Numbered from the stretch's first letter, positions 5,674 through 22,580 are shown. The stretch: DNA of 64,000 bases from Capsulimonadaceae bacterium (GCA_965215505.1 OZ244065.1:4256001-4320000); one strand, 5' to 3'. Made by a program: numbers and translations. Notes: a model not told the origin generated them from the letters alone.

Positions 5674-6045
5674 ATGAAAACCGCCCTGCTCGTCATGGTC
5701 CACGGCTCGCCCCGGCCCGTCGCAAACGGCGACATGTTCCGCGTCGTGGAGGAAGTCAAGGCCCGCGCCGTCTTCGACCACGTCGCCGTCGGCTTCATGG
5801 AGTGCAACGAGCCGACCATCCCCGACGCCGTGGACGCCTGCGCCGCGTCCGGCGCGGAGCGCGTCGTCGCCGTCCCGTATTTCCTGCACACCGGGACCCA
5901 CGTCGCCGACGACCTGCCGACGCTGCTGGAAGAAGCGCGGGAGCGCCACCCGCACGTCCAGTTCCAGATGGGACGCTACATCGGCACCTCGCCGCTCCTT
6001 ACGGACATCCTCAGCGCCCGCGCCCATGCGGCGGTCGGCGGCTGA
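5674..6045 (+). CDS. Short CbiX/SirB-family sirohydrochlorin chelatase
   Basis: MVHGS, GFMECNEP, VPYFLHTGTHVADDLP with both catalytic His residues. Confidence 0.85.
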   Translation: MKTALLVMVHGSPRPVANGDMFRVVEEVKARAVFDHVAVGFMECNEPTIPDAVDACAASGAERVVAVPYFLHTGTHVADDLPTLLEEARERHPHVQFQMGRYIGTSPLLTDILSARAHAAVGG

Positions 6046-6139
6046 AACAGACACACGGCAGCGCTGCCGCACGGCCCATGGGCCGTCTCCTGCAACAGAA
6101 CATCCCGCGAAACACGCAAGAAAGAAGCAAGACTCGCCC

Positions 6140-8218
6140 ATGCCTACGCACGCCCCCCGCCGCCTCCGGCCCGCCCGGCTCCTGCCGCTCCTGGTCGGCC
6201 TCGGCCTCTCCGCCGCTCGACTCCCGGCCCAGACGCCGCCCGCGCCCATGAACACCGCGCCCGCCCTGCACGGCGTGGATCTCAGCACCATTGATACGTC
6301 CGTCCTGCCCTGCCGCGACTTCTACCAGTACGCGAACGGCAAATGGCTGGCCGCGAACCCCGTCCCCGCCGACCGCTCCACCTGGGGCGAGATGAGCGAG
6401 ATGGGGGAGCGCAACAGCGCCGTCCTGCACTCCATCCTGGACCGGGCGGTCACCGGCCCGCCCGCCCCGGCGGGCAGCGTCGAGCGCAAGGTCGCCGACT
6501 TCTACCGCAGCGGCATGGACACCGCCCGCATCGAGCGCGAAGGCGTCCAGCCGCTGGCCCCCGAGTTCGCCCGCATTGATCAGGTCAGCGACACGCCCGG
6601 CCTGCTGGCCGAGATCGCCCACCTGCACCAGTACGGCATCCGCGCCGCCTGGGGCTTCGGCGTCAGCGCGGACACCAAGGACAGCATCCACACCATCGGG
6701 CAGCTCAGACAGGGCGGGCTGGGCCTGCCCGACCGGGACTACTACACCAAGACCGACCCCAAATCCGTCGCCCTGCGCGCCGCCTACGTCGCCCACGTCG
6801 CCCGGATGTTCGTCCTGCTCGGCGACGCCCCGGACCGCGCCGATGCCGAGTCGCAGACGGTCATGGGCATCGAAACTCGGCTGGCCTCCGCCTCCATGAC
6901 CCGCCTGGAGCAGCGCGACCCGAACGCCACCTACCACAAGCTGACATTGGCCCAGCTCGACGCCCTCTCCCCCGGCCTGTCCTGGCAGCCCTACCTCGCC
7001 GCCGTCGGCGACACCGACCCCGGCCCGCTGCTCGTCGGCCAGCCGCAGTTCTTCACGGTCGTGGGCGGCATGCTGAACTCGGTCCCGATCGCCGACTGGA
7101 AGACCTACCTGCGCTGGCACCTCATCAACGCCACGGCGGACGACCTGAGCGACGCCTTTGGCAACGAGCAGTTCGCCTTCACCGGTAAAACGCTCAACGG
7201 CTCCCCGGCCCAGCTCCCCCGATGGAAGCGCGTCCTGGCCCAGACCGACGGCTCGCTCGGCGAGGGGCTGGGCAGCCTGTATGTCGCCCGCTCCTTCTCG
7301 CCCGAGGCCAAGAAGCGCGCCCTGACCCTGGTCCTGAACCTGAAGTCCGCCCTGCACGACCGGCTCCAGTCGCTGGACTGGATCGGCGACGACACGCGCA
7401 AGCAGGCCCTGCACAAGCTCGACAAGATGATCATCAAGATCGGCTACCCGGACCACCCGCGCGACTACACCGCCCTCGCCATCGACAGCCCGGACTTCGT
7501 CACGAACGCCCTGGCCGCGCGCCGGTTTGAGGTGGCCCGCAACCTGAAGAAGCTCGGCCACCCCGTGGACCGGACCGAGTGGGGCATGTCCGCCCCGACC
7601 GTCAACGCCTACTACAACCCCTCCGTGAACGAGATCGTCTTCCCCGCCGGCATCCTCCAGCCGCCCTTCTTCGACGCCCAGGCCGACGACGCCTCCAACT
7701 ACGGCTCCATCGGCGCGGTCATCGGGCACGAGATGACGCACGGCTTCGACGACCAGGGGCGGCAGTTCGACGCCGACGGCAACCTGAAGGACTGGTGGAC
7801 GGCCGCCGACAAGAAAAACTTCCAGTCGCGCGCCGACCTCGTCGCCCACCAGTTCGACGACTTCGTGGCCGTGGACGACCTGCACGTCAACGGGCACCTC
7901 ACTCTGGGCGAGGACATCGCGGACCTCGGCGGCCTGAAGATCGCCTACCTCGCCTTCGAGAAGGCGCAGGCCGGCAAGCCGCGCGTCCGCATCGGCGGCT
8001 TCACCCCCGAGCAGCGCTTCTTCCTGGCCTTCGCCCAGGTGTGGCGCACCAACACGCGCCCCGAAGCCGCCCGCCTGCGCGTCGCGACCGATCCGCACGC
8101 GCCCGCCCGGTTCCGCGTCCTCGGCCCACTCGCCAACCTGCCTGAGTTCGCCCAGGCCTTTCCCTGCCCCGCCGGGGAGGCGAAGGTGGCCTCCGCGCAG
8201 ACGGTGAACATCTGGTAG
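6140..8218 (+). CDS. Secreted M13 (neprilysin/PepO-like) metalloendopeptidase
   Basis: Signal peptide; DFYQYANGKW, VNAYY, HEMTH zinc motif, GEDIAD, DPHAP. Confidence 0.93.
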   Translation: MPTHAPRRLRPARLLPLLVGLGLSAARLPAQTPPAPMNTAPALHGVDLSTIDTSVLPCRDFYQYANGKWLAANPVPADRSTWGEMSEMGERNSAVLHSILDRAVTGPPAPAGSVERKVADFYRSGMDTARIEREGVQPLAPEFARIDQVSDTPGLLAEIAHLHQYGIRAAWGFGVSADTKDSIHTIGQLRQGGLGLPDRDYYTKTDPKSVALRAAYVAHVARMFVLLGDAPDRADAESQTVMGIETRLASASMTRLEQRDPNATYHKLTLAQLDALSPGLSWQPYLAAVGDTDPGPLLVGQPQFFTVVGGMLNSVPIADWKTYLRWHLINATADDLSDAFGNEQFAFTGKTLNGSPAQLPRWKRVLAQTDGSLGEGLGSLYVARSFSPEAKKRALTLVLNLKSALHDRLQSLDWIGDDTRKQALHKLDKMIIKIGYPDHPRDYTALAIDSPDFVTNALAARRFEVARNLKKLGHPVDRTEWGMSAPTVNAYYNPSVNEIVFPAGILQPPFFDAQADDASNYGSIGAVIGHEMTHGFDDQGRQFDADGNLKDWWTAADKKNFQSRADLVAHQFDDFVAVDDLHVNGHLTLGEDIADLGGLKIAYLAFEKAQAGKPRVRIGGFTPEQRFFLAFAQVWRTNTRPEAARLRVATDPHAPARFRVLGPLANLPEFAQAFPCPAGEAKVASAQTVNIW

Positions 8219-9465: not shown

Positions 9466-9697
9466 GTTTTGTAGCCGGACTGTTGTGTTTGCCCTGGGCC
9501 TTCACCAGTGACGAGTAGAGCAGGAAGTGCTTCCATCGTAGCACGCCCCCGCTTGCTTGTCAAGCAGTTCGCCTCAGACACCAGGGCCACCCCCGAGAAG
9601 AGGGGCAACCACAGGGGGCTGCCCCTACCGATGGCGGAGGGGTTCACTTCAGGGCCTGCCCTCCCCTGCTTTCCCCCTAACCCCCCCGCCCCCGCCT

Positions 9698-9706
9698 GCC
9701 GACAAT
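9698..9706 (+). promoter_or_regulatory. GCCGACAAT motif, sigma28-like -10 element
   Basis: Identical 9-mer also at 16802, 26099 and 32109, each shortly upstream of a start codon. Confidence 0.45.
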
Positions 9707-9729
9707 CACCGGAGAGGCTTTACGTTTTC

Positions 9730-12162
9730 ATGCGGACACTGCCGGCCGGCGCACAACTCTATCTCCTCGCCACCTATTTCGCCGCCCTGCTCACGGCCGG
9801 GTGGGCCGCCGTCACGCCCCCGCCGGAGGCCCACGCGCGCGGCTGGGAGGTGGCCCTGTTCCTGGCCCTGGCGATCCTCGCCTACGGCAAGAAGATCACC
9901 CTGCTCCGGCACACGGGCGACAAGGACGCCGGCTCGCTGTCGCTCGGCTTCGCCATCACCTTCGCCGCCCTGCTGCGCTTCGGCCCGCAGGGTGCCCTGG
10001 TCGTCGGCACCCTGGGCTGCCTGTCGGCGTGCCTGCATCCCCGCCGCCAGCCGGGATACCAGTTCGCCTTCAACGTCTCGGTCGCCGCCGTCGCCACCTG
10101 GCTGTCGGGCCTGACCTTCCTCGCCCTGAACGGCGGCCTGACTTTCGGCCTGCGCCGGACCCTGCTCGCCGCCGCCGCCGCGAGCCTCCTCTACTACGCG
10201 GTCAACAACGTCGCGACGGCCGCCGTGATCGCGCTCTGCACCGGCCAGAGGGTGGTCACGGTCTGGCGCGAGAGTTTCCTGTGGACCGCGCCCGGCTACT
10301 TCGCCGGGGGGGCCATCGGGACGGTCGGGGCGCTGGCCTGCGGCAGCGGCGACTGGCCGCTGCTGCTGGTGCTGACCCCCGTGGCCTACCTGACCTACTC
10401 GGCCTATGCCGTCTACGCCGGCCGGGCGGCGGAGCGGCAGAGCCACATCGAGAGCCTGGCCGACCTGTACCTGGGCACCATCCGCAGCCTCGCCGTCGCT
10501 ATCGACGCCAAGGACCAGCGCTCCCACCAGCACATCGTCCGCGTCCAGCGGTCGGCCGTCGCCACCGCCCGGCACATGGGCCTGAGCGCAGATCTGGTGG
10601 AAGCGGTCAACACGGGCACGCTGCTCAAGGACATCGGCAAGCTGGGCGTCCCGGACTACGTCCTGCTGAAAACGGGCGAGCTGACCGGCGAAGAGTTCGC
10701 CAAGATCCGGAAGCACCCCGAGGTCGGCGCGGCCATCCTCGAAGGGGTCGTCTTCCCCTGGCCGGTCCTGCCGGTCGTCCGGTCGCACCACGAGCGGTGG
10801 GACGGGACCGGCTACCCGGACGGGTTGAAGGGCGAGCAGATCCCGCTGACGGCGCGGATACTGGCCGTCGCCGACGTCTACGACGCCCTGACCTCCTCGC
10901 GCGCCCACCGGGGGGCCTGGAGCCGCGAGGGGGCATTGGCGGAGATCCAGCGCCAGGCGGGCGCCCACTTCGACCCCGCCGTCGTCGCCGCCTTCACCGC
11001 CGTGATCGGCGGCCTGGCCGAAGAAGCGCCCGAGGCCGCTCCGCCCGAGGCCGCCGCGCCGGGGGGCGGAATCGTAAGCTCCGGGGACGCGGTCCGCCAG
11101 ATCCAGCGGGCCTCCTCGGAACTTTGGGCGCTCTACGAGGTCGCGCAGACGCTGTCATCCAGTCTCGGCCTGCAAGAGACTCTGGAAATTTTAGGCCGCA
11201 AGCTCGAAGCCATCCTGCCGGGCACCGCCTGCCTCTTTCTGCTGCGCGAGGGGGCCGAGGACGCCCTGGTGGCGCGCGTGGCCGTCGGACTGAACGGCGA
11301 CCGGCTGCGCGGCGCGCGGGCGAACGGGCTGGCGAGCCGCTCCCTCCAGGCCGCGACCGGCCGCGAGACCTATCGTGGCCCCTACGACGCGGATGACCTC
11401 TGCCTGCCGGACACGCTTGCGGGCTCGTGGGAGCCGCTGCGGGCCGCCCTGATCGTCCCCATCGTCCATGCGGGCGAGGTACTGGGCACGGTCAACCTCT
11501 ACCACCCGGACGCGGACGCCTTCGGGCCGCACGACCAGCAGCTCCTGGAGACCATCGCCGAGCGGGCCGCGCTGGCCCTCTACAACGGCCTGCTGTTCGA
11601 CCGGACCCGGTCGCACGCGAACACCGACGGGCTGACGGGCCTGTACAACCTGCGCTACCTGACTCAGCAGGTGGACGCGCTCTGCCTCGGGGCCGAGCCG
11701 CTGGCCCTGCTCTGCCTGGACCTGGACAGCTTCAAGCCGATCAACGACAACTTCGGCCACCAGAAGGGCGACCAGGTGCTGTGCGACCTGGCCGAGATCT
11801 TCTGCGGGGCGGTCCGCGACTCGGACATCGTCGCGCGCTACGGCGGCGACGAGTTCCTGGTCGTCCTGCGCGGGGCGGGCGCGGCCGAGGCGCAGGCGAT
11901 GTCCCAGCGCCTGCTGGAAGCCGTCTCCGCCTACGACCCCGGCCTGGCGCACCCGACGTTGGGCCGCCTCCGGGTGGGCGTCTCCATCGGGTGGGGCTGC
12001 GCCCCCGCCGACGGCCGGGACTGCACCGCCCTGCTGGCCGCCGCCGACGCCCGGATGTACCGCGAGAAGACCCAGCGCAAGCTGGGCGCGCGGGCCGAGC
12101 CGAGGCGGGACGGCCCGGCCGACCCGGACGTGCCCCTGCTGAGGCTCGTGGACGCGGCCTAG
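9730..12162 (+). CDS. Multi-TM membrane sensor (MASE9-like) + HD-GYP + GAF + GGDEF protein
   Basis: About 7-8 hydrophobic segments; LLKDIGK (HD changed to KD), HHERWDGTGYP, RILAVADVYDAL; GAF; DLDSFKPINDNFGHQKGD, RDSD I-site, YGGDEF. Confidence 0.9.
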   Translation: MRTLPAGAQLYLLATYFAALLTAGWAAVTPPPEAHARGWEVALFLALAILAYGKKITLLRHTGDKDAGSLSLGFAITFAALLRFGPQGALVVGTLGCLSACLHPRRQPGYQFAFNVSVAAVATWLSGLTFLALNGGLTFGLRRTLLAAAAASLLYYAVNNVATAAVIALCTGQRVVTVWRESFLWTAPGYFAGGAIGTVGALACGSGDWPLLLVLTPVAYLTYSAYAVYAGRAAERQSHIESLADLYLGTIRSLAVAIDAKDQRSHQHIVRVQRSAVATARHMGLSADLVEAVNTGTLLKDIGKLGVPDYVLLKTGELTGEEFAKIRKHPEVGAAILEGVVFPWPVLPVVRSHHERWDGTGYPDGLKGEQIPLTARILAVADVYDALTSSRAHRGAWSREGALAEIQRQAGAHFDPAVVAAFTAVIGGLAEEAPEAAPPEAAAPGGGIVSSGDAVRQIQRASSELWALYEVAQTLSSSLGLQETLEILGRKLEAILPGTACLFLLREGAEDALVARVAVGLNGDRLRGARANGLASRSLQAATGRETYRGPYDADDLCLPDTLAGSWEPLRAALIVPIVHAGEVLGTVNLYHPDADAFGPHDQQLLETIAERAALALYNGLLFDRTRSHANTDGLTGLYNLRYLTQQVDALCLGAEPLALLCLDLDSFKPINDNFGHQKGDQVLCDLAEIFCGAVRDSDIVARYGGDEFLVVLRGAGAAEAQAMSQRLLEAVSAYDPGLAHPTLGRLRVGVSIGWGCAPADGRDCTALLAAADARMYREKTQRKLGARAEPRRDGPADPDVPLLRLVDAA

Positions 12163-12192
12163 CGCCTCCCCCTCCGCTCAGGCCGCGCCCCT

Positions 12193-12231
12193 TTTTCCCG
12201 CACTTCTTCTTTTCCCGCACTTCTTTCAGTG
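12193..12231 (+). promoter_or_regulatory. Direct-repeat operator-like element (TTTTCCCGCACT x2 + TCAGTG), copy 1
   Basis: Conserved at the same position upstream of all three S8 genes, about 20 nt before a -10-like hexamer. Confidence 0.6.
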
Positions 12232-12275
12232 ATGCTCGCCTGCTGCCCCCCCAATAATCAAGCGTAGACGATCCC

Positions 12276-12375
12276 CGCCCCCGAACAGGGCAAACCGGCC
12301 GCGAGGCCGGGACGCAAAGCCTTCGGGTCTGTGTAAATCCCAACACGCGCAGATGGCCGGGCCGCCGAACGGGCG
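12276..12375 (+). ncRNA. c-di-GMP-I (GEMM-I) riboswitch aptamer, G20 type
   Basis: ACAGGGCAAACC-GGCC-GCGA-GGCC-GGGACGCAAAGCC...GGCCGGGCCGCCGAA; P1 CGCCC/GGGCG; matches the Vc2 layout. Confidence 0.9.
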
Positions 12376-12413
12376 ACACGCTTCCTCGGGCCGGGGCCGT
12401 CTGACACCATCCT

Positions 12414-12529
12414 TCGCAGGCGACAAGAGCAAACCGCGCGAAAGCGTGGGACGCAAAGCCACGGGCCTTATTCTTCAGCCGTCCCTAGGAACAGTACCGA
12501 AGAATGGCCGCCGGGCCACCGAGCAGCGA
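12414..12529 (+). ncRNA. GEMM-I riboswitch aptamer, A20 variant (3',3'-cGAMP/GEMM-Ib-like)
   Basis: ACAAGAGCAAACC-GCGC-GAAA-GCGT-GGGACGCAAAGCCACGGGCC...GCCGGGCCACCGA; A at 12428 occupies the Vc2 G20 position. Confidence 0.85.
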
Positions 12530-12549
12530 CGATTCCGAGGGACCTTCTT

Positions 12550-14352
12550 ATGCTTAACAAGATCAACCGAAACGTGATCAACCGGACTTCTTGGAGGGCG
12601 CCGGCGCTGGCCGCCCTGTCCGTGGGCCTGGCCGCCGCCCACGCCTCCCCGGCCCCGAACACAGCACACCACCCCTCCGGGGGGGCGCGCGCGGCCTCCC
12701 GCCCGGCGGCCTCCACGCCCGTCATCCTGAAACTCGCGCCGGGGGGTCTGACGCCCGCCCGGCAGGCCGCGCTCGCCCGGCTCGGGGCGGGCGTGACGCG
12801 CCACCTGGGCTTCATCGGCTCGGTCGCCGTCACCGTCCCGAGCCGGAACCTGGCCCGCGTCGCCGCCCTGCCGTTCGTCACGCACGTCTCCTGTGACGGC
12901 CAGGTCCACAAGTGCGACGAGTTCACGGTCGCCGCGAGCGGGGCGGGGGCGGCCTACCAGCAGTACGGGCTGACCGGGCAGGGCGTCACCGTCGCCGTCG
13001 TGGACAGCGGCGTCCAGTGCAACCACTGGGATCTGCTGGATGCCAACGGGGACGGCAACTCGCGGGTAATCGGCTACGCGGATTTTGTCCCGAGTACGAA
13101 TGGCCCCAAGCTTTACTCCGACTATTGCGGCCACGGCTCGCACGTCGCCGGCATCATCGCCGGCAACGGCGCGGCCTCCACCGGCAGCCAGTGTACCCAC
13201 ACCTACTACGGCATCGCCCGCAACGCCAGCCTCGTCAACGTGCGCGTGCTGGACCAGAACGGCGCGGGCAGCGTCAGCACCGTCCTCGCCGGCATCCAGT
13301 GGGTGGTGGCCCACAAGAACGACAACCGGAGAGCGCCGATCCGCGTGCTGAACCTGTCGCTGGGGCACCCCGTCGGCGAGAGCTACACCACCGACCCGCT
13401 CTGCCAGGCCGTCGAGGCCGCCTGGAAGGCCGGCATCGTCGTCGTCTGCGCCGCCGGCAACGCCGGCCGCGTCTCCAACACCGTGGCCGCGGGCCAGTCC
13501 AACGAGGGCTACGGCACAGCCTACGGCTCCATCCAGTCTCCGGGCAACGACCCCTACGTCATCACCGTCGGCGCGACCAAGAGCGTGGACGGCAGCCGCT
13601 GGCACGACAGGGTCGCCACCTATTCCAGCCGGGGGCCGAGCCGCCTGGACCTGGTGCTGAAGCCCGACATCATCGCGCCGGGCAACCAGGTCATCTCGCT
13701 GGACGTGGACTGGGCCACGCTCAACGCCGCCTATGGGGGCACCAACATGCTCCCCTACAGCGCCTACACCACGGCGGCGGCGTCCGGGGCTGCCGGCACG
13801 CTGGGGGCCGCCAACCGGGCGGGAGCGGGGATGTCCGACGCCTACTTCCGCCTGTCGGGCACTTCCATGGCCGCGCCCGTCGTGGCAGGGGCGGCGGCCC
13901 TGCTGCTCCAGGCGAACCCGCGGCTCTCGCCGGACACGGTGAAGGCCCGCCTGATGGTCTCCGCCGACAAATGGGGCGCACCCGACTGGCGGGGGAACCC
14001 GACAGGGCAGGCGGACCCCTGCACCTACGGGGCTGGGTATCTGAACATCCCCGCCGCGATCCAGAGCAGCGTCTTCGCCGGCCAGTCCGCCCTCAGCCCC
14101 ACGCTGACGGAGGACGGCAGCGGCAACGTCGCCATCAACGCCTCGGGCATCATGTCCGCCTCGCACGTCATCTGGGGCAGCACCGGTGTCAATGATCTGC
14201 ACGTCATCTGGGGGACGAATGCGATCTCGGGCAGCAGCGCGCTGTCGGCCTCGCACGTCATCTGGGGCAGCAGCGTCTTCTCCGACCACGTCATCTGGGG
14301 CACCAGCACCAGTGCCGTGGACCTCTCCTCGGTCGCCATCAACGGCGAGTAA
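12550..14352 (+). CDS. Secreted S8 subtilisin-like (AprX-like) serine protease 1 with C-terminal HVIWG repeats
   Basis: Signal peptide, pro-domain, VAVVDSG / GHGSHVAG / SGTSMAAP triad; HVIWG x4. Confidence 0.93.
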   Translation: MLNKINRNVINRTSWRAPALAALSVGLAAAHASPAPNTAHHPSGGARAASRPAASTPVILKLAPGGLTPARQAALARLGAGVTRHLGFIGSVAVTVPSRNLARVAALPFVTHVSCDGQVHKCDEFTVAASGAGAAYQQYGLTGQGVTVAVVDSGVQCNHWDLLDANGDGNSRVIGYADFVPSTNGPKLYSDYCGHGSHVAGIIAGNGAASTGSQCTHTYYGIARNASLVNVRVLDQNGAGSVSTVLAGIQWVVAHKNDNRRAPIRVLNLSLGHPVGESYTTDPLCQAVEAAWKAGIVVVCAAGNAGRVSNTVAAGQSNEGYGTAYGSIQSPGNDPYVITVGATKSVDGSRWHDRVATYSSRGPSRLDLVLKPDIIAPGNQVISLDVDWATLNAAYGGTNMLPYSAYTTAAASGAAGTLGAANRAGAGMSDAYFRLSGTSMAAPVVAGAAALLLQANPRLSPDTVKARLMVSADKWGAPDWRGNPTGQADPCTYGAGYLNIPAAIQSSVFAGQSALSPTLTEDGSGNVAINASGIMSASHVIWGSTGVNDLHVIWGTNAISGSSALSASHVIWGSSVFSDHVIWGTSTSAVDLSSVAINGE

Positions 14353-14389
14353 CACGCTCAACTCACGCGGTCATCTGACACGCCCATCG

Positions 14390-14440
14390 GCCCGCCGCAT
14401 GCACAATCCTTCACCCATGGAGGCGCAGGCGGCGGGCTTT
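14390..14440 (+). terminator. Conserved hairpin / intrinsic terminator after S8 gene 1
   Basis: GCCCGCCGC...GCGGCGGGC + TTT; homologous copies follow S8 genes 2 and 3. Confidence 0.65.
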
Positions 14441-14457
14441 CCCTTTTCCCGCCCCCC

Positions 14458-14498
14458 TTTTCCCGCACTTCGTTTCTTTTCCCGCACTTCTCTCAGTG
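14458..14498 (+). promoter_or_regulatory. Direct-repeat operator-like element, copy 2
   Basis: TTTTCCCGCACT at 14458 and 14477, TCAGTG, then CATAAT at 14518. Confidence 0.6.
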
Positions 14499-14540
14499 GC
14501 CGCCCTGCTCCAGACGGCATAATCAAGCGTAGATGGTTTC

Positions 14541-14639
14541 CGCCCCCGATCCGGGCAAACCGGCCGCGAGGCCGGGACGCAAAGCCACGGGCCTCCGCAA
14601 ATCTCAACACGCGGAGGCGGCCGGGCCGCCGAACGGGCG
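14541..14639 (+). ncRNA. c-di-GMP-I riboswitch aptamer, G20 type (second locus)
   Basis: CCGGGCAAACCGGCCGCGAGGCCGGGACGCAAAGCCACGGGCCTCC...GGAGGCGGCCGGGCCGCCGAA; P1 CGCCC/GGGCG. Confidence 0.9.
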
Positions 14640-14679
14640 ACACACTCCTTCGGGCCACGGGACCACCTGACCGCATCCT

Positions 14680-14782
14680 TCGCGAGCGACAAGAGCATAC
14701 CCGGCGAAAGCCGGGGGCGCAAAGCCACGGGCCTTCTTCTTCAGCAGTATCGGGGAATGGCCGCCGAGCTACCGAGCGGCGA
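14680..14782 (+). ncRNA. GEMM-I riboswitch aptamer, A20 variant (second locus)
   Basis: ACAAGAGCATACCCGGCGAAAGCCGGGGGCGCAAAGCCACGGGCC...GCCGAGCTACCGA; A at 14694 in the G20 position. Confidence 0.82.
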
Positions 14783-14801
14783 GATTACGAGGGAACAACC
14801 A

Positions 14802-16661
14802 ATGAAACACCGAAAAACGTCCCGAGAAACATCCCGAGAAACATCCCGAAAGGCACCCGCAGTAGCCGCCTTCTGCCTCGGATTGGCCGGCGCTCTCGGG
14901 ACCGTCACACCAGCACATGCGGGTACGCCCCCTGCACCGCACCTCCGCGCCGAAGCCGACTCCTTCTTTGTCCAGACCCTGGCCGACAGGCCCGCGTCGG
15001 GCCGCGCCCCCGTCATCGTGAAGCTCGCGCTGGGGGGTCTGACGCCCGCCCGGCAGGCCGCGCTCGCCCGGCTCGGGGCGGGCGTGACGCGCCACCTGGG
15101 CTTCATCGGCTCGGTCGCCGTCACCGTGCCGGACCGCAATCTGGACCGGCTGGCCGCCCTGCCGTTCGTGTCGCACCTGTCCGTGGACGGCCAGGTCCAC
15201 AAGTGCGACGAGTTCACCTGCGCCTCCAGTGGGGCCGACACCGCCTACCAGCAGTACGGGCTGACCGGGGCGGGCGTCACCGTCGCCGTCGTGGACAGCG
15301 GCATCACTTCTTCAAGGGATTTGAACGGCAACTCCTGGAATGCGGGCGGCAACTCCCGGAACGGTCGCCTTCAGGGGGCGGTCAGCTTCGTTCCGGGCGA
15401 CTCCAGCACGGACGACGCCTGCGGGCACGGCTCCCATGTCGCCGGCATCATCGCCGGGAACGGCTCCAACTCTTCGGGCTTCGGATATTCGCACACCTAC
15501 TACGGCGCGGCGCGGAATGCCAGCCTGGTGAACGTGCGCGTGCTGGACCAGTACGGCATGGGCAGCGTCAGCACGGTGCTGGCGGGCATCCAGTGGGTGG
15601 TGGCCCACAAGAACGATAACGCGAACGCGCCGATCCGGGTCTTGAACCTGTCTCTGGGGCATCCTGTGGGCGAGAGCTACAAGACCGACCCGCTCTGCCA
15701 GGCCGTCGAGGCCGCCTACCGGGCGGGCATCGTCGTCGTCTGCGCCGCAGGCAACGGCGGGCGGGCGAGCCTCTGGAACACAGCGGGCGCGGCTAATGAG
15801 GGGTGGGGGACGGCCTACGGCTCCATCAACTCGCCCGGCAACGACCCCTATGTCATCACGGTGGGTGCGACCAAGAGCAACGACGGCGTCCGCGTCCATG
15901 ACACCATCGCCACCTATTCCAGCCGGGGGCCGAGCCGCCTGGACCTGGTGCTGAAGCCCGACATCATCGCGCCCGGCAACAAGGTCATCTCCGTCTGCTC
16001 CAACGGCAGCACCCTCGACACCTATGCGGGCGGCACCAATGACATCCCCATGTCTACCTACTCCCGGTTTCCCATGCCCATGACTTCGTGGAACTACTTC
16101 CGTTTGTCGGGCACTTCCATGGCCGCGCCCGTCGTGGCGGGGGCGGCGGCCCTGCTGCTCCAGGCTAGCCCGAACCTGACGCCCGACACCGTCAAGGCTC
16201 GCCTGATGGTCGCCGCCGACAAGTGGGCCGCCCCCGCCGCCAGCGGTACGCCGACCGGCCTGGCCGACCCATGCACCTACGGGGCGGGCTACCTCAACAT
16301 CCCCGCCGCCCTCGCCAGCACGGTGACGGCGTCCGCGCCCGCCCTCAGCCCCACGCTGACCTACGACGCCAAAGGCAACGTGAGTATCGTCGCTTCGAGC
16401 ATGACTTCGGCCTCGCACGTCATCTGGGGCACCAGCGCCGTCAACGACCTGCACGTCATTTGGGGGACCAGCGCCATTTCGGGCAGCAGCACACTGGCGG
16501 CCTCGCACGTCATCTGGGGGACCAGCGTTTTCACCAACACCACCACCTGGGCGTTCAGCACCGGCGCTGCGGACCTCTCCGCTTCCGCCCTCTACGGCGA
16601 GGGGGCCGCCGTCCAGGCCTTCCAGGCGAATGCCTGCCCCGCGCCGGCAAGCGCGAATTAA
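14802..16661 (+). CDS. Secreted S8 serine protease 2 with HVIWG repeats
   Basis: SD GAGGGA then ATG 14802; D/H/S triad motifs; HVIWG x3 plus TTTWA; short extension after ...LYGE. Confidence 0.93.
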   Translation: MKHRKTSRETSRETSRKAPAVAAFCLGLAGALGTVTPAHAGTPPAPHLRAEADSFFVQTLADRPASGRAPVIVKLALGGLTPARQAALARLGAGVTRHLGFIGSVAVTVPDRNLDRLAALPFVSHLSVDGQVHKCDEFTCASSGADTAYQQYGLTGAGVTVAVVDSGITSSRDLNGNSWNAGGNSRNGRLQGAVSFVPGDSSTDDACGHGSHVAGIIAGNGSNSSGFGYSHTYYGAARNASLVNVRVLDQYGMGSVSTVLAGIQWVVAHKNDNANAPIRVLNLSLGHPVGESYKTDPLCQAVEAAYRAGIVVVCAAGNGGRASLWNTAGAANEGWGTAYGSINSPGNDPYVITVGATKSNDGVRVHDTIATYSSRGPSRLDLVLKPDIIAPGNKVISVCSNGSTLDTYAGGTNDIPMSTYSRFPMPMTSWNYFRLSGTSMAAPVVAGAAALLLQASPNLTPDTVKARLMVAADKWAAPAASGTPTGLADPCTYGAGYLNIPAALASTVTASAPALSPTLTYDAKGNVSIVASSMTSASHVIWGTSAVNDLHVIWGTSAISGSSTLAASHVIWGTSVFTNTTTWAFSTGAADLSASALYGEGAAVQAFQANACPAPASAN

Positions 16662-16676
16662 CCGGCAAAGCCCCGC

Positions 16677-16727
16677 GCCCGCCCCCTGCATAGTCTTCCA
16701 CCCGTGGAGGCGCAGGCGGCGGGCTTT
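16677..16727 (+). terminator. Conserved hairpin / terminator after S8 gene 2
   Basis: GCCCGCCCCCTGC...GCAGGCGGCGGGC TTT. Confidence 0.6.
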
Positions 16728-16745
16728 CTCGTGTCCCGCCCCTCC

Positions 16746-16810
16746 TTTTCCCGCACTCCTCCTTTTCCCGCACTTCTTTCAGTGACGCCCCTTTGCGGGA
16801 CGCCGACAAT
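16746..16810 (+). promoter_or_regulatory. Direct-repeat operator-like element, copy 3, plus GCCGACAAT
   Basis: TTTTCCCGCACT at 16746 and 16763, TCAGTG, GCCGACAAT at 16802; no riboswitch follows. Confidence 0.6.
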
Positions 16811-16815
16811 TAGCC

Positions 16816-18591
16816 ATGAGGAAGTCGTCTCCGAGACGACCACCAGGAAGAAGCCATGCTGAACCAAAAAAATCGACAACAATGCGCCCGGAAGCGCCCA
16901 TCCTTGCCGCACTCTCCCTTGGCCTGGTCAGTGCCTTACTGACCGGCCCGGCGGCTCAAGCGGACGCGCCCGCCGCGAAGGCCGACACCGCCCGGCTCCT
17001 GGCCGCCGGGCCGACAGCGGCCCGCGCCCCCGTCATCGTGAAGCTCGCGCCGGGGGGTCTGACGCCCGCCCGGCAGGCCGCGCTCGCCCGGCTCGGGGCG
17101 GGCGTGACGCGCCACCTGGGCTTCATCGGCTCGGTCGCCGTCACCGTGCCGGACCGCAATCTGGACCGGCTGGCCGCCCTGCCGTTCGTGTCGCACCTGT
17201 CCGTGGACGGCCAGGTCCACAAGTGCGACGAGTTCACGGTCGCCGCGAGCGGGGCGGGGGCGGCCTACCAGCAGTACGGGCTGACCGGGCAGGGCGTCAC
17301 CGTCGCCGTCGTGGACAGCGGCGTCCGCAGCAACGCCGACCTGCGGACGCCGGGGTCCGGGAAGCCGCAGCTCCTCGCCTCGCAGAGCTTCATCCCCGGC
17401 GACACCAGCACGGACGACGCCTGCGGGCACGGCACCCACATCGCCGGCATCGTCGCCGGCAACGGCGCGGCCTCTACGGGCAGCCAGTACACCCACACCT
17501 ACTACGGCATCGCCCGGCAGGCCAATCTGGTGAGCGCACGCGTGCTGGACAAGAACGGCGCGGGCAGCGTCAGCACGGTAGTGGCTGGCATCGGGTGGGT
17601 CGTCGCTAACAAGGCGAAATACGGCGTCCGCGTCCTGAACCTGTCGCTGGGGCACCCGGTCGGCGAGAGCTACACCACCGACCCGCTCTGCCAGGCCGTC
17701 GAGGCCGCCTGGAAGGCCGGCATCGTCGTCGTCTGCGCCGCCGGCAACGCCGGGCGGGCCGGTGCCACCAACACAGCGGGCGCGGCCAACGAGGGGTGGG
17801 GGACGGCCTACGGCTCCATCCAGTCTCCGGGCAACGACCCCTACGTCATCACCGTCGGCGCGACCAAGAGCGTGGACGGGAACCGCTGGGACGACAGGGT
17901 CGCTACCTACTCCAGCCGGGGGCCGAGCCGCCTGGACCTGGTGCTGAAGCCCGACATCATCGCGCCCGGCAACCAGGTCATCTCGACGTACTCCTACGGG
18001 AGCATGCTTTTCAACTACAACGTCGCGAACAACAACAGCCTGCCGATACAGACCTACTCGAAGACGGCCTGGAACGGCTATTCCACCGACTACTTCCGTC
18101 TGTCGGGCACTTCCATGGCCGCGCCCGTCGTGGCGGGGGCGGCGGCCCTGCTGCTCCAGGCCAGCCCGAACCTGTCGCCCGACACCGTCAAGGCCCGCCT
18201 GATGATCTCCGCCGACAAGTGGGCCGCCCCCGACGGCACCGGCGACCCCCTCACCTACGGGGCGGGCTACCTCGACATCCCCGCCGCCATCGCAAGCACC
18301 GCGACGGCGAGCCTGCCCGCCCTCAGCCCCGCGTTGACGCTCAACAATGACGGCACCGCCTCCCTCGTCATGGACCGGGCCACCTGGGGCTCCAGCCTGT
18401 GGGGGACCGGCATCACCGACCTGCGGGCCACCTGGGGCAGCTCGGTCAGCGCGGACCGCGCGACCTGGGGCAGCGCCGCGCTGGTCATGGACCGGGCCAC
18501 CTGGGGCAGCAGCGTGTGGGGCGACCGGGCCACCTGGGGCAGCAGCACCGACGCCGTGGATCTCTCCTCGGTCGTCATCAACGGCGAGTGA
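16816..18591 (+). CDS. Secreted S8 serine protease 3 with RATWG repeats (start ambiguous)
   Basis: VAVVDSG / GHGTHIAG / SGTSMAAP; RATWG x5 plus SLWG and SVWG; ends DLSSVVINGE. Confidence 0.9.
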   Translation: MRKSSPRRPPGRSHAEPKKSTTMRPEAPILAALSLGLVSALLTGPAAQADAPAAKADTARLLAAGPTAARAPVIVKLAPGGLTPARQAALARLGAGVTRHLGFIGSVAVTVPDRNLDRLAALPFVSHLSVDGQVHKCDEFTVAASGAGAAYQQYGLTGQGVTVAVVDSGVRSNADLRTPGSGKPQLLASQSFIPGDTSTDDACGHGTHIAGIVAGNGAASTGSQYTHTYYGIARQANLVSARVLDKNGAGSVSTVVAGIGWVVANKAKYGVRVLNLSLGHPVGESYTTDPLCQAVEAAWKAGIVVVCAAGNAGRAGATNTAGAANEGWGTAYGSIQSPGNDPYVITVGATKSVDGNRWDDRVATYSSRGPSRLDLVLKPDIIAPGNQVISTYSYGSMLFNYNVANNNSLPIQTYSKTAWNGYSTDYFRLSGTSMAAPVVAGAAALLLQASPNLSPDTVKARLMISADKWAAPDGTGDPLTYGAGYLDIPAAIASTATASLPALSPALTLNNDGTASLVMDRATWGSSLWGTGITDLRATWGSSVSADRATWGSAALVMDRATWGSSVWGDRATWGSSTDAVDLSSVVINGE

Positions 18592-18607
18592 CCCGGCCGG
18601 CTTCCAT

Positions 18608-18660
18608 GCCCGCCGCCTGCATCGCTTCCCACCCGTGGAGGCGCAGGCGGCGGGCTTTTT
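18608..18660 (+). terminator. Intrinsic terminator after S8 gene 3
   Basis: GCCCGCCGCCTGC...GCAGGCGGCGGGC followed by TTTTT. Confidence 0.75.
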
Positions 18661-18821
18661 CGTGTCACCACCCGGCGGCATGAGCGGCGGGACTAAACGG
18701 GTATAATAAACCGGCAAAAGATGTGGCGCAGGCTTGGGCGGGTGAACCCCGCCGGAGCCTTTTTCGTGCGTCACGCCTCCCGGTGATTTTAGTTGGCGAT
18801 CTTGGAAGGAAGCACTGGCGA

Positions 18822-22580
<3,759 letters not shown>

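Follow-up and report, generated by a model that had tools for sequence, protein, structure and literature searches.

Secreted subtilases with Trp-Gly repeat tails are conserved genomic partners of a MASE9-like membrane sensor domain: a riboswitch-containing locus of a Capsulimonadaceae bacterium

Protease genes with cyclic di-GMP (c-di-GMP) riboswitches have been described before. The genes associated with the GEMM motif include 'subtilase', and tandem GEMM was noted as well (PMC1950547), while in Clostridioides difficile the class-I c-di-GMP riboswitch Cdi-1-12 controls the secreted protease ZmpI (PMC6200980). Among potential sensors, MASE9-HD-GYP-GAF-GGDEF proteins possess an N-terminal domain of eight transmembrane (TM) helices, and their ligand was argued to bind within the membrane; one MASE9 protein has been studied so far, and the available part of the source does not name its ligand (Galperin and Chou, bioRxiv 10.1101/2021.11.05.467447). 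Tandem identical short peptides flanked by Kex2 sites are known from fungal Kex2-processed repeat proteins and alpha-factor precursors (PMC7329392, PMC6339444). Here we analyze positions 9730 to 18660 of a 64,000-nucleotide stretch from a Capsulimonadaceae bacterium (GCA_965215505.1, OZ244065.1:4256001-4320000; the whole stretch is called the window, and positions are counted from its first letter), where a gene for a MASE9-like sensor-enzyme is followed by three genes for secreted subtilases (peptidase family S8) with Trp-Gly (WG) repeat tails, two of which have c-di-GMP-I aptamers in their leaders. The genome of this soil bacterium is a single contig of 6.18 Mb with 66% GC. The pairing of such a protease with the membrane domain of the sensor is a real and conserved signalling unit with an inferred mechanism, on which our literature search found no publication. 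The genes in question are:

9730..12162, + strand: membrane sensor-enzyme (MASE9-like 8-TM domain, HD-GYP, GAF, GGDEF with RxxD I-site; from Pfam and an alignment of 23 sensors)
12550..14352, + strand: subtilase S8-1 (600 amino acids; signal peptide, N-propeptide, catalytic domain, tail with four HVIWG)
14044..14349, + strand: tail of S8-1 (102 amino acids; start ALSPxL..GNV, hexad units, end VDLSSxAxxGE)
14802..16661, + strand: subtilase S8-2 (619 amino acids from Met16; open reading frame (ORF) open from 14757; tail with three HVIWG and a 19-residue extension)
16882..18591, + strand: subtilase S8-3 (569 amino acids from Met23; ORF open from 16816; tail with seven WG, mostly DRATWG)

This arrangement of a multi-TM/HD-GYP/GAF/GGDEF gene upstream of three tandem S8 proteases had been read from the sequence in an earlier annotation of the window (hereafter the original prediction), and every element is present in its place. 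To see how far it extends, 151 Armatimonadota genomes (this one included), sampled evenly from a larger group, were surveyed. S8-1 as a query (E ≤ 1e-60) had matches in 31 genomes, the aptamer model RF01051 in 72, and the membrane domain alone (residues 60-331 of the window sensor, P0004; E ≤ 1e-5) in 36; because the S8 search scored no more than eight candidates in each genome, the number of S8 copies may be too low. Outside this genome there are 69 S8 matches, of which 31 lie within 10 kb of a membrane-domain match (27 within 5 kb, 25 within 3 kb), with about 0.60 expected at random for the 10-kb pairing; related genomes in the survey are not independent of each other. At least one pair is present in 18 of the 31 S8-bearing genomes, and in several of the others the assembly consists of hundreds of contigs. 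The membrane domain was found in 28 of the 31 genomes with S8 versus 8 of the 120 genomes without it.

We then considered 40 loci with 46 of the 69 S8 matches outside this genome, fetched whether paired or unpaired. In the 30 paired loci (two from this genome) the sensor is usually the immediate neighbour of the protease, located upstream, downstream or divergently. Its output part varies: HD-GYP-GAF-GGDEF in 18 pairs, HD-GYP-GAF in 2, HD-GYP in 3, PP2C in 3 and HisKA-HATPase-REC in 4. Apart from these two, no gene family recurs across the paired loci. A further scan covered bacteria in general (one genome per species, seeded with HD-GYP motifs; Armatimonadota were almost absent from the loci returned). 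The membrane domain was present in 12 of its 80 loci, mostly from Acidobacteriota, and in 3 of these 12 a WG-tailed S8 gene is adjacent. The input domain thus stays beside the protease despite changed output, order, strand and phylum, which speaks for membrane domain and protease working together. The original prediction had asked whether WG-tailed S8 proteases recur beside one and the same membrane-sensor domain irrespective of its output; for Armatimonadota and some Acidobacteriota, the answer is positive. At a fourth acidobacterial locus (Blastocatellia metagenome-assembled genome, L067 1659-3788), an S8 protease with SEGITL hexads, devoid of Trp, is located beside a full-length sensor homologue.

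The same pairing is found elsewhere in this genome. The S8 paralogue at 1950207 is directly followed by a gene for the membrane domain fused to PP2C (SpoIIE) (L023 8063-11591; C1:1950063-1953591), and this pair is repeated in two relatives (L032, L037). A riboswitch-bearing pair of S8 genes (3915813-3920188) lies ~10 kb from a second MASE9-like-HD-GYP-GAF-GGDEF gene, which is adjacent to S8 in relatives with the same flanking genes. This second sensor gene (L147 1684-7612; C1:3927684-3933612) is divergent from a gene for a cytoplasmic GAF-PAS(x4)-GGDEF-HD-GYP protein of 1056 amino acids. The closest paralogue of S8-1 (at 2398817; L022 8748-13051, C1:2398748-2403051; 80% identity) has an SKTLWG-type tail and no riboswitch, and is convergent with a cytoplasmic TPR-GGDEF-HD-GYP gene lacking the membrane domain.

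The ORF of the window sensor is open over 9508-12162 (+), with an upstream GTG at 9508 also open; the alignment with 22 homologues places the true start at Met75 (window 9730). Pfam identifies HD_5 (HD-GYP; 3.7e-36), GAF_2 (4e-13) and GGDEF (3.8e-35). About eight N-terminal TM segments can be recognized (hydrophobic segments judged by eye), and the sequence leaves very short extracytoplasmic loops between them. MASE9 (PF20972) matches this region with 20.4 bits, below the cut-off of 24.3, and we therefore refer to the domain as MASE9-like. For the second sensor of this genome, the score is 23.4 bits; among 28 neighbouring sensors of relatives, 10 match MASE9 at E ≤ 0.001, of which three exceed the cut-off (L046, 27.1; L048, 25.5; L050, 30.2). 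The GGDEF active-site motif and the RxxD inhibitory site are intact (the region reads VRDSDIVARYGGDEF), and the GYP motif HHERWDGTGYP is retained. However, the HD dyad is K-D (LLKDIGK, window 10660-10680), compared with H-D in all 22 aligned homologues. The original prediction noted that GGDEF/HD-GYP enzymes make and break c-di-GMP. In the window sensor, phosphodiesterase activity of the HD-GYP domain is doubtful: with GGDEF and I-site intact and the dyad His lost, the protein is most likely a net diguanylate cyclase.

All three proteases match Peptidase_S8 (PF00082; 160.6, 165.7 and 156.6 bits, cut-off 21.8, each ~1e-46) and are 68-71% identical in pairwise comparisons. The starts of S8-2 and S8-3 are likely at 14802 and 16882 rather than at the ORF beginnings at 14757 and 16816, judging from the lengths of P0010 (619 amino acids) and P0019 and from the Shine-Dalgarno (SD) sequences. 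The signal peptide, Asp/His/Ser triad and WG tail foreseen for each protease are all there: the triad (D152, H195, S439) is invariant in the three paralogues and in 101 homologues, and the N-terminal segments of all three look like signal peptides by eye. The AlphaFold2 (AF2) model of S8-1 (predicted local distance difference test, pLDDT, 75) matches ProN-Tk-SP (3afg) and pro-subtilisins, N-propeptide included; Tk-SP (PDB 3afg, 9ues) is the best match of S8-1 both in sequence (E 1.7e-40) and in Foldseek (E 5e-29).

S8-3 has a mosaic structure. In the propeptide it shares 88-91% identity with S8-1 and S8-2; in the tail, it is 62-63% identical to 'type B' tails at another locus type and 45-46% identical to the tails of its neighbours. 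This tail is of the RATWG type, as at a different sensor locus, and riboswitches of S8-3 were lost or never present. S8-2 runs 19 residues past the usual ..YGE end (window 16602-16658; GAAVQAFQANACP...), and an extension of this type with its Cys is also found in homologues P0009, P0012, P0021, P0023, P0031 and P0045. Homologues P0006, P0026, P0027, P0053, P0061 and P0066 (705-735 amino acids) contain the additional domains PF14200/PF00652, PF03422, PF16990 and PF22704, which we take to be of lectin or carbohydrate-binding module (CBM) type; wherever the tail sequence is displayed, these proteins still finish in a repeat tail.

All tails possess a conserved start (ALSPxL..G.V), a variable run of hexads of the form x-x-hydrophobic-hydrophobic-Trp-Gly, and a conserved end at G-E or G-D. 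The tails of S8-1, S8-2 and S8-3 contain 4, 3 and 7 WG motifs, and full HVIWG or RATWG units make up only some of their hexads; the six-residue periodicity is kept even in degenerate units. Near-perfect arrays are found in distant relatives, e.g., nine copies of DNAIWG/ENAIWG, nine of DRVVWG, seven of DQALWG, 16 of DQALW(A/S), eight of DNALWS and nine of NRVIWG. Identical hexads are encoded by many different synonymous DNA versions (12 versions among 12 copies of DQALWA, 8 among 9 of DRVVWG, 7 among 8 of DNALWS and 6 among 6 of NSAMWG), and the DQALWA copies differ on average at 2.76 positions per 18 nucleotides, always synonymously. The identity of the units is thus kept by selection on the peptide and does not result from recent duplication: in these relatives the exact repeat peptide is under selection.

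In the full-length model of S8-1, residues 505-560 have a pLDDT of 77-86 and residues 571-600 are below 40. For a perfect-repeat tail (L042, alignment of 38 rows), AF2 predicted the first ~33 residues with confidence and the repeats with a pLDDT of ~30 and no secondary structure; this lack of a fold does not show disorder. A left-handed beta-helix (Hexapep) was considered for the tails and rejected, as there is no Pfam match and AF2 predicts no strands (pLDDT ~30). Matches of the tail in the ESM Atlas are clusters without names, commonest in Acidobacteriota; in one of them, 16% of the members have Hexapep. Such clusters are no more than leads. The S8-1 tail was also searched exhaustively in 1.84 billion proteins, which gave 71 matches at E ≤ 0.001, ten of which were inspected in full. 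Six of the ten have a subtilase before repeats of the DN(I/L)(I/V)WG type, three consist of repeats only and may be gene fragments, and one is an unrelated repeat protein; no convincing stand-alone repeat precursor is thus among the ten inspected, and short proteins among the other matches may be fragments. The tail alignments contain no dibasic or other spacer or cleavage motif between the hexads. Kex2 cleavage sites are dibasic.

Two lineages deviate in the tail. Four riboswitch-controlled S8 genes of genome G103 (L039 3761-10413, L041 3875-5698) have units SKA(L/M)SG, with Ser for Trp; no membrane sensor was found within the fetched 10-14 kb around these genes, which represent a single lineage. 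In genome G048 (L053 4932-7274), the tail of an S8 protease encoded next to a MASE9-like hybrid kinase lacks Trp hexads and is rich in Tyr, Pro and Glu (..YYYEPYYYDPYY..).

Upstream of S8-1 and S8-2 there are tandem GEMM-I elements, as the original prediction had it, i.e., four c-di-GMP-I aptamers in two pairs:

12280..12370, + strand: c-di-GMP-I aptamer 1a (RF01051, 57.5 bits; RF03167, 60.7 bits)
12410..12416, + strand: anti-SD segment TCCTTCG, directly 5' of aptamer 1b and complementary to CGAGGGA at 12536-12542
12419..12524, + strand: c-di-GMP-I aptamer 1b, proximal to the start codon (RF01051, 62.7 bits)
14544..14634, + strand: c-di-GMP-I aptamer 2a (RF01051, 54.7 bits; RF03167, 55.3 bits, under the cut-off of 59)
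14685..14777, + strand: c-di-GMP-I aptamer 2b (anti-SD TCCTTCG at 14676-14682, SD CGAGGGA at 14788-14794)

With 62.7, 62.1, 57.5 and 54.7 bits, the four aptamers score 20-28 bits above the RF01051 cut-off of 35. RF03167 (c-di-GMP-I-GGC) is the best Rfam model for three of the four, by small margins (63.4, 61.7 and 60.7 bits, cut-off 59; the fourth has 55.3). However, all four read GCAAAGCC where the RF03167 consensus is GCGAAgCc, i.e., they have A instead of G at what is presumably the name-giving position of the GGC variant. They look like ordinary c-di-GMP-I aptamers. The Rfam scan revealed no aptamer upstream of S8-3, even at E ≤ 1.

The SD sequence CGAGGGA is located 11-13 nucleotides past the start-proximal aptamer, and the complementary UCCUUCG lies directly 5' of this aptamer. 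In two bacterial families, most leaders have this anti-SD and an SD of CGA(A/G)GGA or a related sequence on either side of the proximal aptamer. Unconstrained folding of the S8-2 leader pairs the SD with the UCCUUCG flank. The bracketing of the proximal aptamer by this pair points to translational control, in which c-di-GMP would set the translation of the S8-1 and S8-2 mRNAs.

The link between these aptamers and S8 genes is recurrent. In this genome, 8 of 11 c-di-GMP-I aptamers are upstream of 4 of the 7 S8 paralogues. Other genomes contributed 39 scanned loci with 45 S8 genes, of which 19 have aptamers, 7 of these in tandem, and all 26 aptamers of these loci are directly upstream of an S8 gene. 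Aptamers were present at 10 of 23 loci with a c-di-GMP-type sensor, and none were present at the 7 loci where the sensor is a PP2C or kinase protein (p = 0.038 in a one-sided Fisher test, only suggestive, as relatedness is ignored). The non-S8 aptamers of this genome comprise one at C1:3295768-3295904 (L026 6768-6904), directly before a gene for FlgM (anti-sigma-28; L026 6889-7317) that is followed by ParA/ParB-like genes, one at L024 6509-6601 upstream of a NERD-domain gene, and one at C1:597538-597635 (-).

A shared direct-repeat element before each protease and a shared terminator after it had also been predicted, and both were found at all three genes:

12183..12235, + strand: direct-repeat element 1 (14-mers at 12193-12206 and 12210-12223; repeat family D9, genome-wide scan)
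14389..14438, + strand: terminator hairpin 1 (repeat family D7; -31.8 kcal/mol, z -2.67; followed by a U-rich run)
14450..14502, + strand: direct-repeat element 2 (14-mers at 14458-14471 and 14477-14490)
16677..16724, + strand: terminator hairpin 2 (-32.3 kcal/mol, by folding)
16736..16788, + strand: direct-repeat element 3 (14-mers at 16746-16759, with one mismatch, and 16763-16776; no riboswitch downstream)
18608..18655, + strand: terminator hairpin 3 (-42.4 kcal/mol, z -5.6, by folding)

In the 6.18-Mb genome the exact 14-mer is confined to the three S8 promoters (five exact copies and one with one mismatch). Two other one-mismatch copies exist genome-wide, one of them upstream of the riboswitch of a paralogue. 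A scan for the sigma-70 consensus gave no promoter-like site. The hairpins after the three S8 genes are GC-rich, homologous to each other and have a U-rich tail; a simple terminator scan missed them because their loops exceed its limit, and they were revealed by folding. The unit is flanked by a gene for an M13 metallopeptidase upstream (window 6026-8218) and by mfd (transcription-repair coupling factor; 18723-22580) downstream, neither of which recurs at related loci.

How could these parts act together? In the reading that we prefer, sensor, proteases and riboswitches would form one functional unit with three layers: secreted pro-subtilases with signal peptide, N-propeptide, triad and Trp-hexad tail; the inner-membrane MASE9-like sensor with its eight helices, the conserved genomic partner of such proteases; and, on two of the three protease mRNAs, leaders with tandem c-di-GMP-I aptamers. 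The membrane domain would read a cue that depends on the protease, and the enzyme would turn this cue into c-di-GMP, the level of which the riboswitches would feed back onto protease production. As this cue, the Trp tail would be the best candidate, whole or in pieces, located at the membrane or within it. Such a reading best fits the strict selection on the units, their fusion to the protease and a sensor whose ligand is presumed to bind inside the membrane. The genes, their motifs, the aptamers, the conserved pairing and the selection on the repeat peptide are observed; that the tail is physically sensed and may be cut off, and that c-di-GMP switches the proteases on or off, is inferred, and we would put the chances of the functional unit at about even. 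The closed loop of the original prediction is thus supported as far as the c-di-GMP sensor and the aptamers fit together and the riboswitch-protease link recurs; its quorum-like part has no direct support. Co-folding of the membrane domain (residues 75-335, 23 rows) with the S8-1 tail (residues 505-600, 101 rows) gave a score of 0.00, which speaks neither for nor against binding.

Several observations weigh against this feedback unit. No membrane-domain gene lies within 10 kb of 38 of the 69 S8 matches; fragmented assemblies are frequent among these, yet the complete-looking genomes G103 and G148 also hold unpaired copies. Some aptamer-bearing S8 genes have no sensor next to them (L029, L039, L041, L059, L061, L062), S8-3 has no riboswitch, and c-di-GMP diffuses, so that any cyclase could feed the switches. 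When helix P1 was forced versus forbidden in 19 leaders, the SD became more open in 8, was unchanged in 8 and was less open in 3, an outcome that is mixed as regards the direction of the switch. In the window tails, WG occupies only 4, 3 and 7 of about ten hexads each. Moreover, the non-repeat start and the C-terminal end (..VDLSSxAxxGE) of the tail are conserved, and the DN-hydrophobic-hydrophobic-WG core recurs across many unrelated S8 fragments, both of which would suit a module with a structural or binding role no less than a signal.

In the main alternative, control runs one way: the sensor may read an unrelated membrane or envelope cue and do no more than regulate dedicated exoproteases, and the tail may be a passive anchoring, substrate-binding or matrix-binding module retained on the enzyme. 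We regard this as possible, if rather doubtful. The core unit shared across lineages speaks for it. The conservation of tail start and end, the hexad periodicity kept in degenerate units and the first ~55 tail residues of S8-1, modelled as part of the enzyme (pLDDT 77-86), are in line with it, as are homologues with additional domains of lectin/CBM type, as in surface-binding enzymes. Riboswitch-controlled S8 genes without a neighbouring sensor also agree with it, and the GEMM-subtilase association was already reported in 2007 (PMC1950547). However, one-way control leaves unexplained why the same input domain stands beside the protease when the output is PP2C or a hybrid kinase, with no obvious path to the protease gene. 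Conservation of every unit residue in up to 12 copies despite synonymous divergence is also stricter than usual for a surface-exposed structural repeat, and AF2 predicts no fold for the repeats, although this is weak evidence.

A stronger version of the preferred reading, closer to the original prediction, would make the protease the precursor of its own signal. Trp-hexapeptides, trimmed from the tail by self-cleavage or by a paralogue, would diffuse as a quorum-like signal, enter the membrane as the ligand of MASE9-type sensors and be read there. The sensor would pass the signal on as c-di-GMP, or as phosphorylation in other lineages, and the riboswitches would close the loop. Relatives with up to ~17 near-identical units, which are kept by selection and differ between lineages, would suit such a signal, and the units invariably form part of an S8 protease. 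The sensor is membrane-embedded with short loops, its ligand being thought to bind within the membrane (bioRxiv 10.1101/2021.11.05.467447), and fungal Kex2-processed repeat proteins provide a precedent for the release of tandem peptides by an S8 protease (PMC7329392, PMC6339444). Nevertheless, we consider this version unlikely: there is no cleavage-site motif between the units, the DN-hydrophobic-hydrophobic-WG core is common to many lineages, unlike fast-diverging pheromones, and no clear stand-alone precursor is among the ten fully inspected of the 71 tail matches.

Two further explanations fare worse. The sensor could be a substrate of the protease, activated or inactivated by proteolysis, but only the conserved adjacency speaks for it; the very short extracytoplasmic loops offer little to cut, and irreversible cleavage is ill-suited to reversibly switched cyclases and kinases, which makes this explanation very improbable. 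That the neighbourhood is merely inherited by descent, without a functional link, is the least probable of all, for although related genomes share synteny (e.g., the flanking genes of L021, L028, L031, L035 and L036), the pairs persist where gene order, strand and output domain have changed and in different bacterial families and phyla, and 31 pairs were observed versus 0.6 expected.

If the protease is indeed the precursor of its own signal, as in the version that we consider unlikely, the locus would represent a type of peptide signalling new to bacteria, with a direct connection to a second messenger and present across several phyla. MASE9 is a widespread membrane sensor domain without a known signal, and the Trp-tailed protease partner provides a concrete candidate that can be tested. 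Furthermore, as the three layers of the possible loop are found within 9 kb, the locus would be a compact model for the coupling of a second messenger to extracellular proteolysis in soil phyla that have received little study.

AgrC and ComP detect short hydrophobic peptides by means of membrane-embedded sensor domains, and LapD/LapG is a system in which an inner-membrane c-di-GMP protein is coupled to a periplasmic protease, LapD acting through its periplasmic domain. The likeness has its limits: the outputs differ, the precursor in those systems is not fused to a protease, and the periplasmic domain of LapD is absent in the window sensor. As for the protease itself, Tk-SP of Thermococcus kodakarensis likewise consists of N-propeptide, catalytic domain and C-terminal extension. 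In Tk-SP, the C-terminal part folds into a beta-jelly-roll domain, whereas the extension of the window proteases is a Trp-hexad repeat without a predicted fold.

The sensor has the same order of N-terminal 8-TM domain, HD-GYP, GAF and GGDEF as proteins of the type MASE9-HD-GYP-GAF-GGDEF described by Galperin and Chou; it differs from the published MASE9 proteins in scoring under the Pfam cut-off and in its K-D dyad. The word 'protease' does not occur in that paper (bioRxiv 10.1101/2021.11.05.467447). As in the fungal repeat proteins, tandem identical peptides are tied here to a protease of the S8 family; the Kex2 system, however, is eukaryotic and uses a separate precursor protein with Kex2 sites, whereas the repeats of the window are fused to the protease and lack such sites (PMC7329392, PMC6339444). 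The link between riboswitch and subtilase alone is ordinary and already published: the GEMM motif shows the same subtilase association and tandem arrangement as the window, and the passages of that paper on tandem motifs and proteases contain no tie to a sensor gene or a repeat tail (PMC1950547). Similarly, Cdi-1-12 is a class-I aptamer in the leader of a secreted protease, as in the window. However, ZmpI is a zinc metalloprotease; its leader has one aptamer, an off switch that works on the transcript, and there is no repeat tail or dedicated membrane sensor next to it (PMC6200980). Compared with Cdi-1-12, the window aptamers are arranged in tandem and combined with an anti-SD/SD platform.

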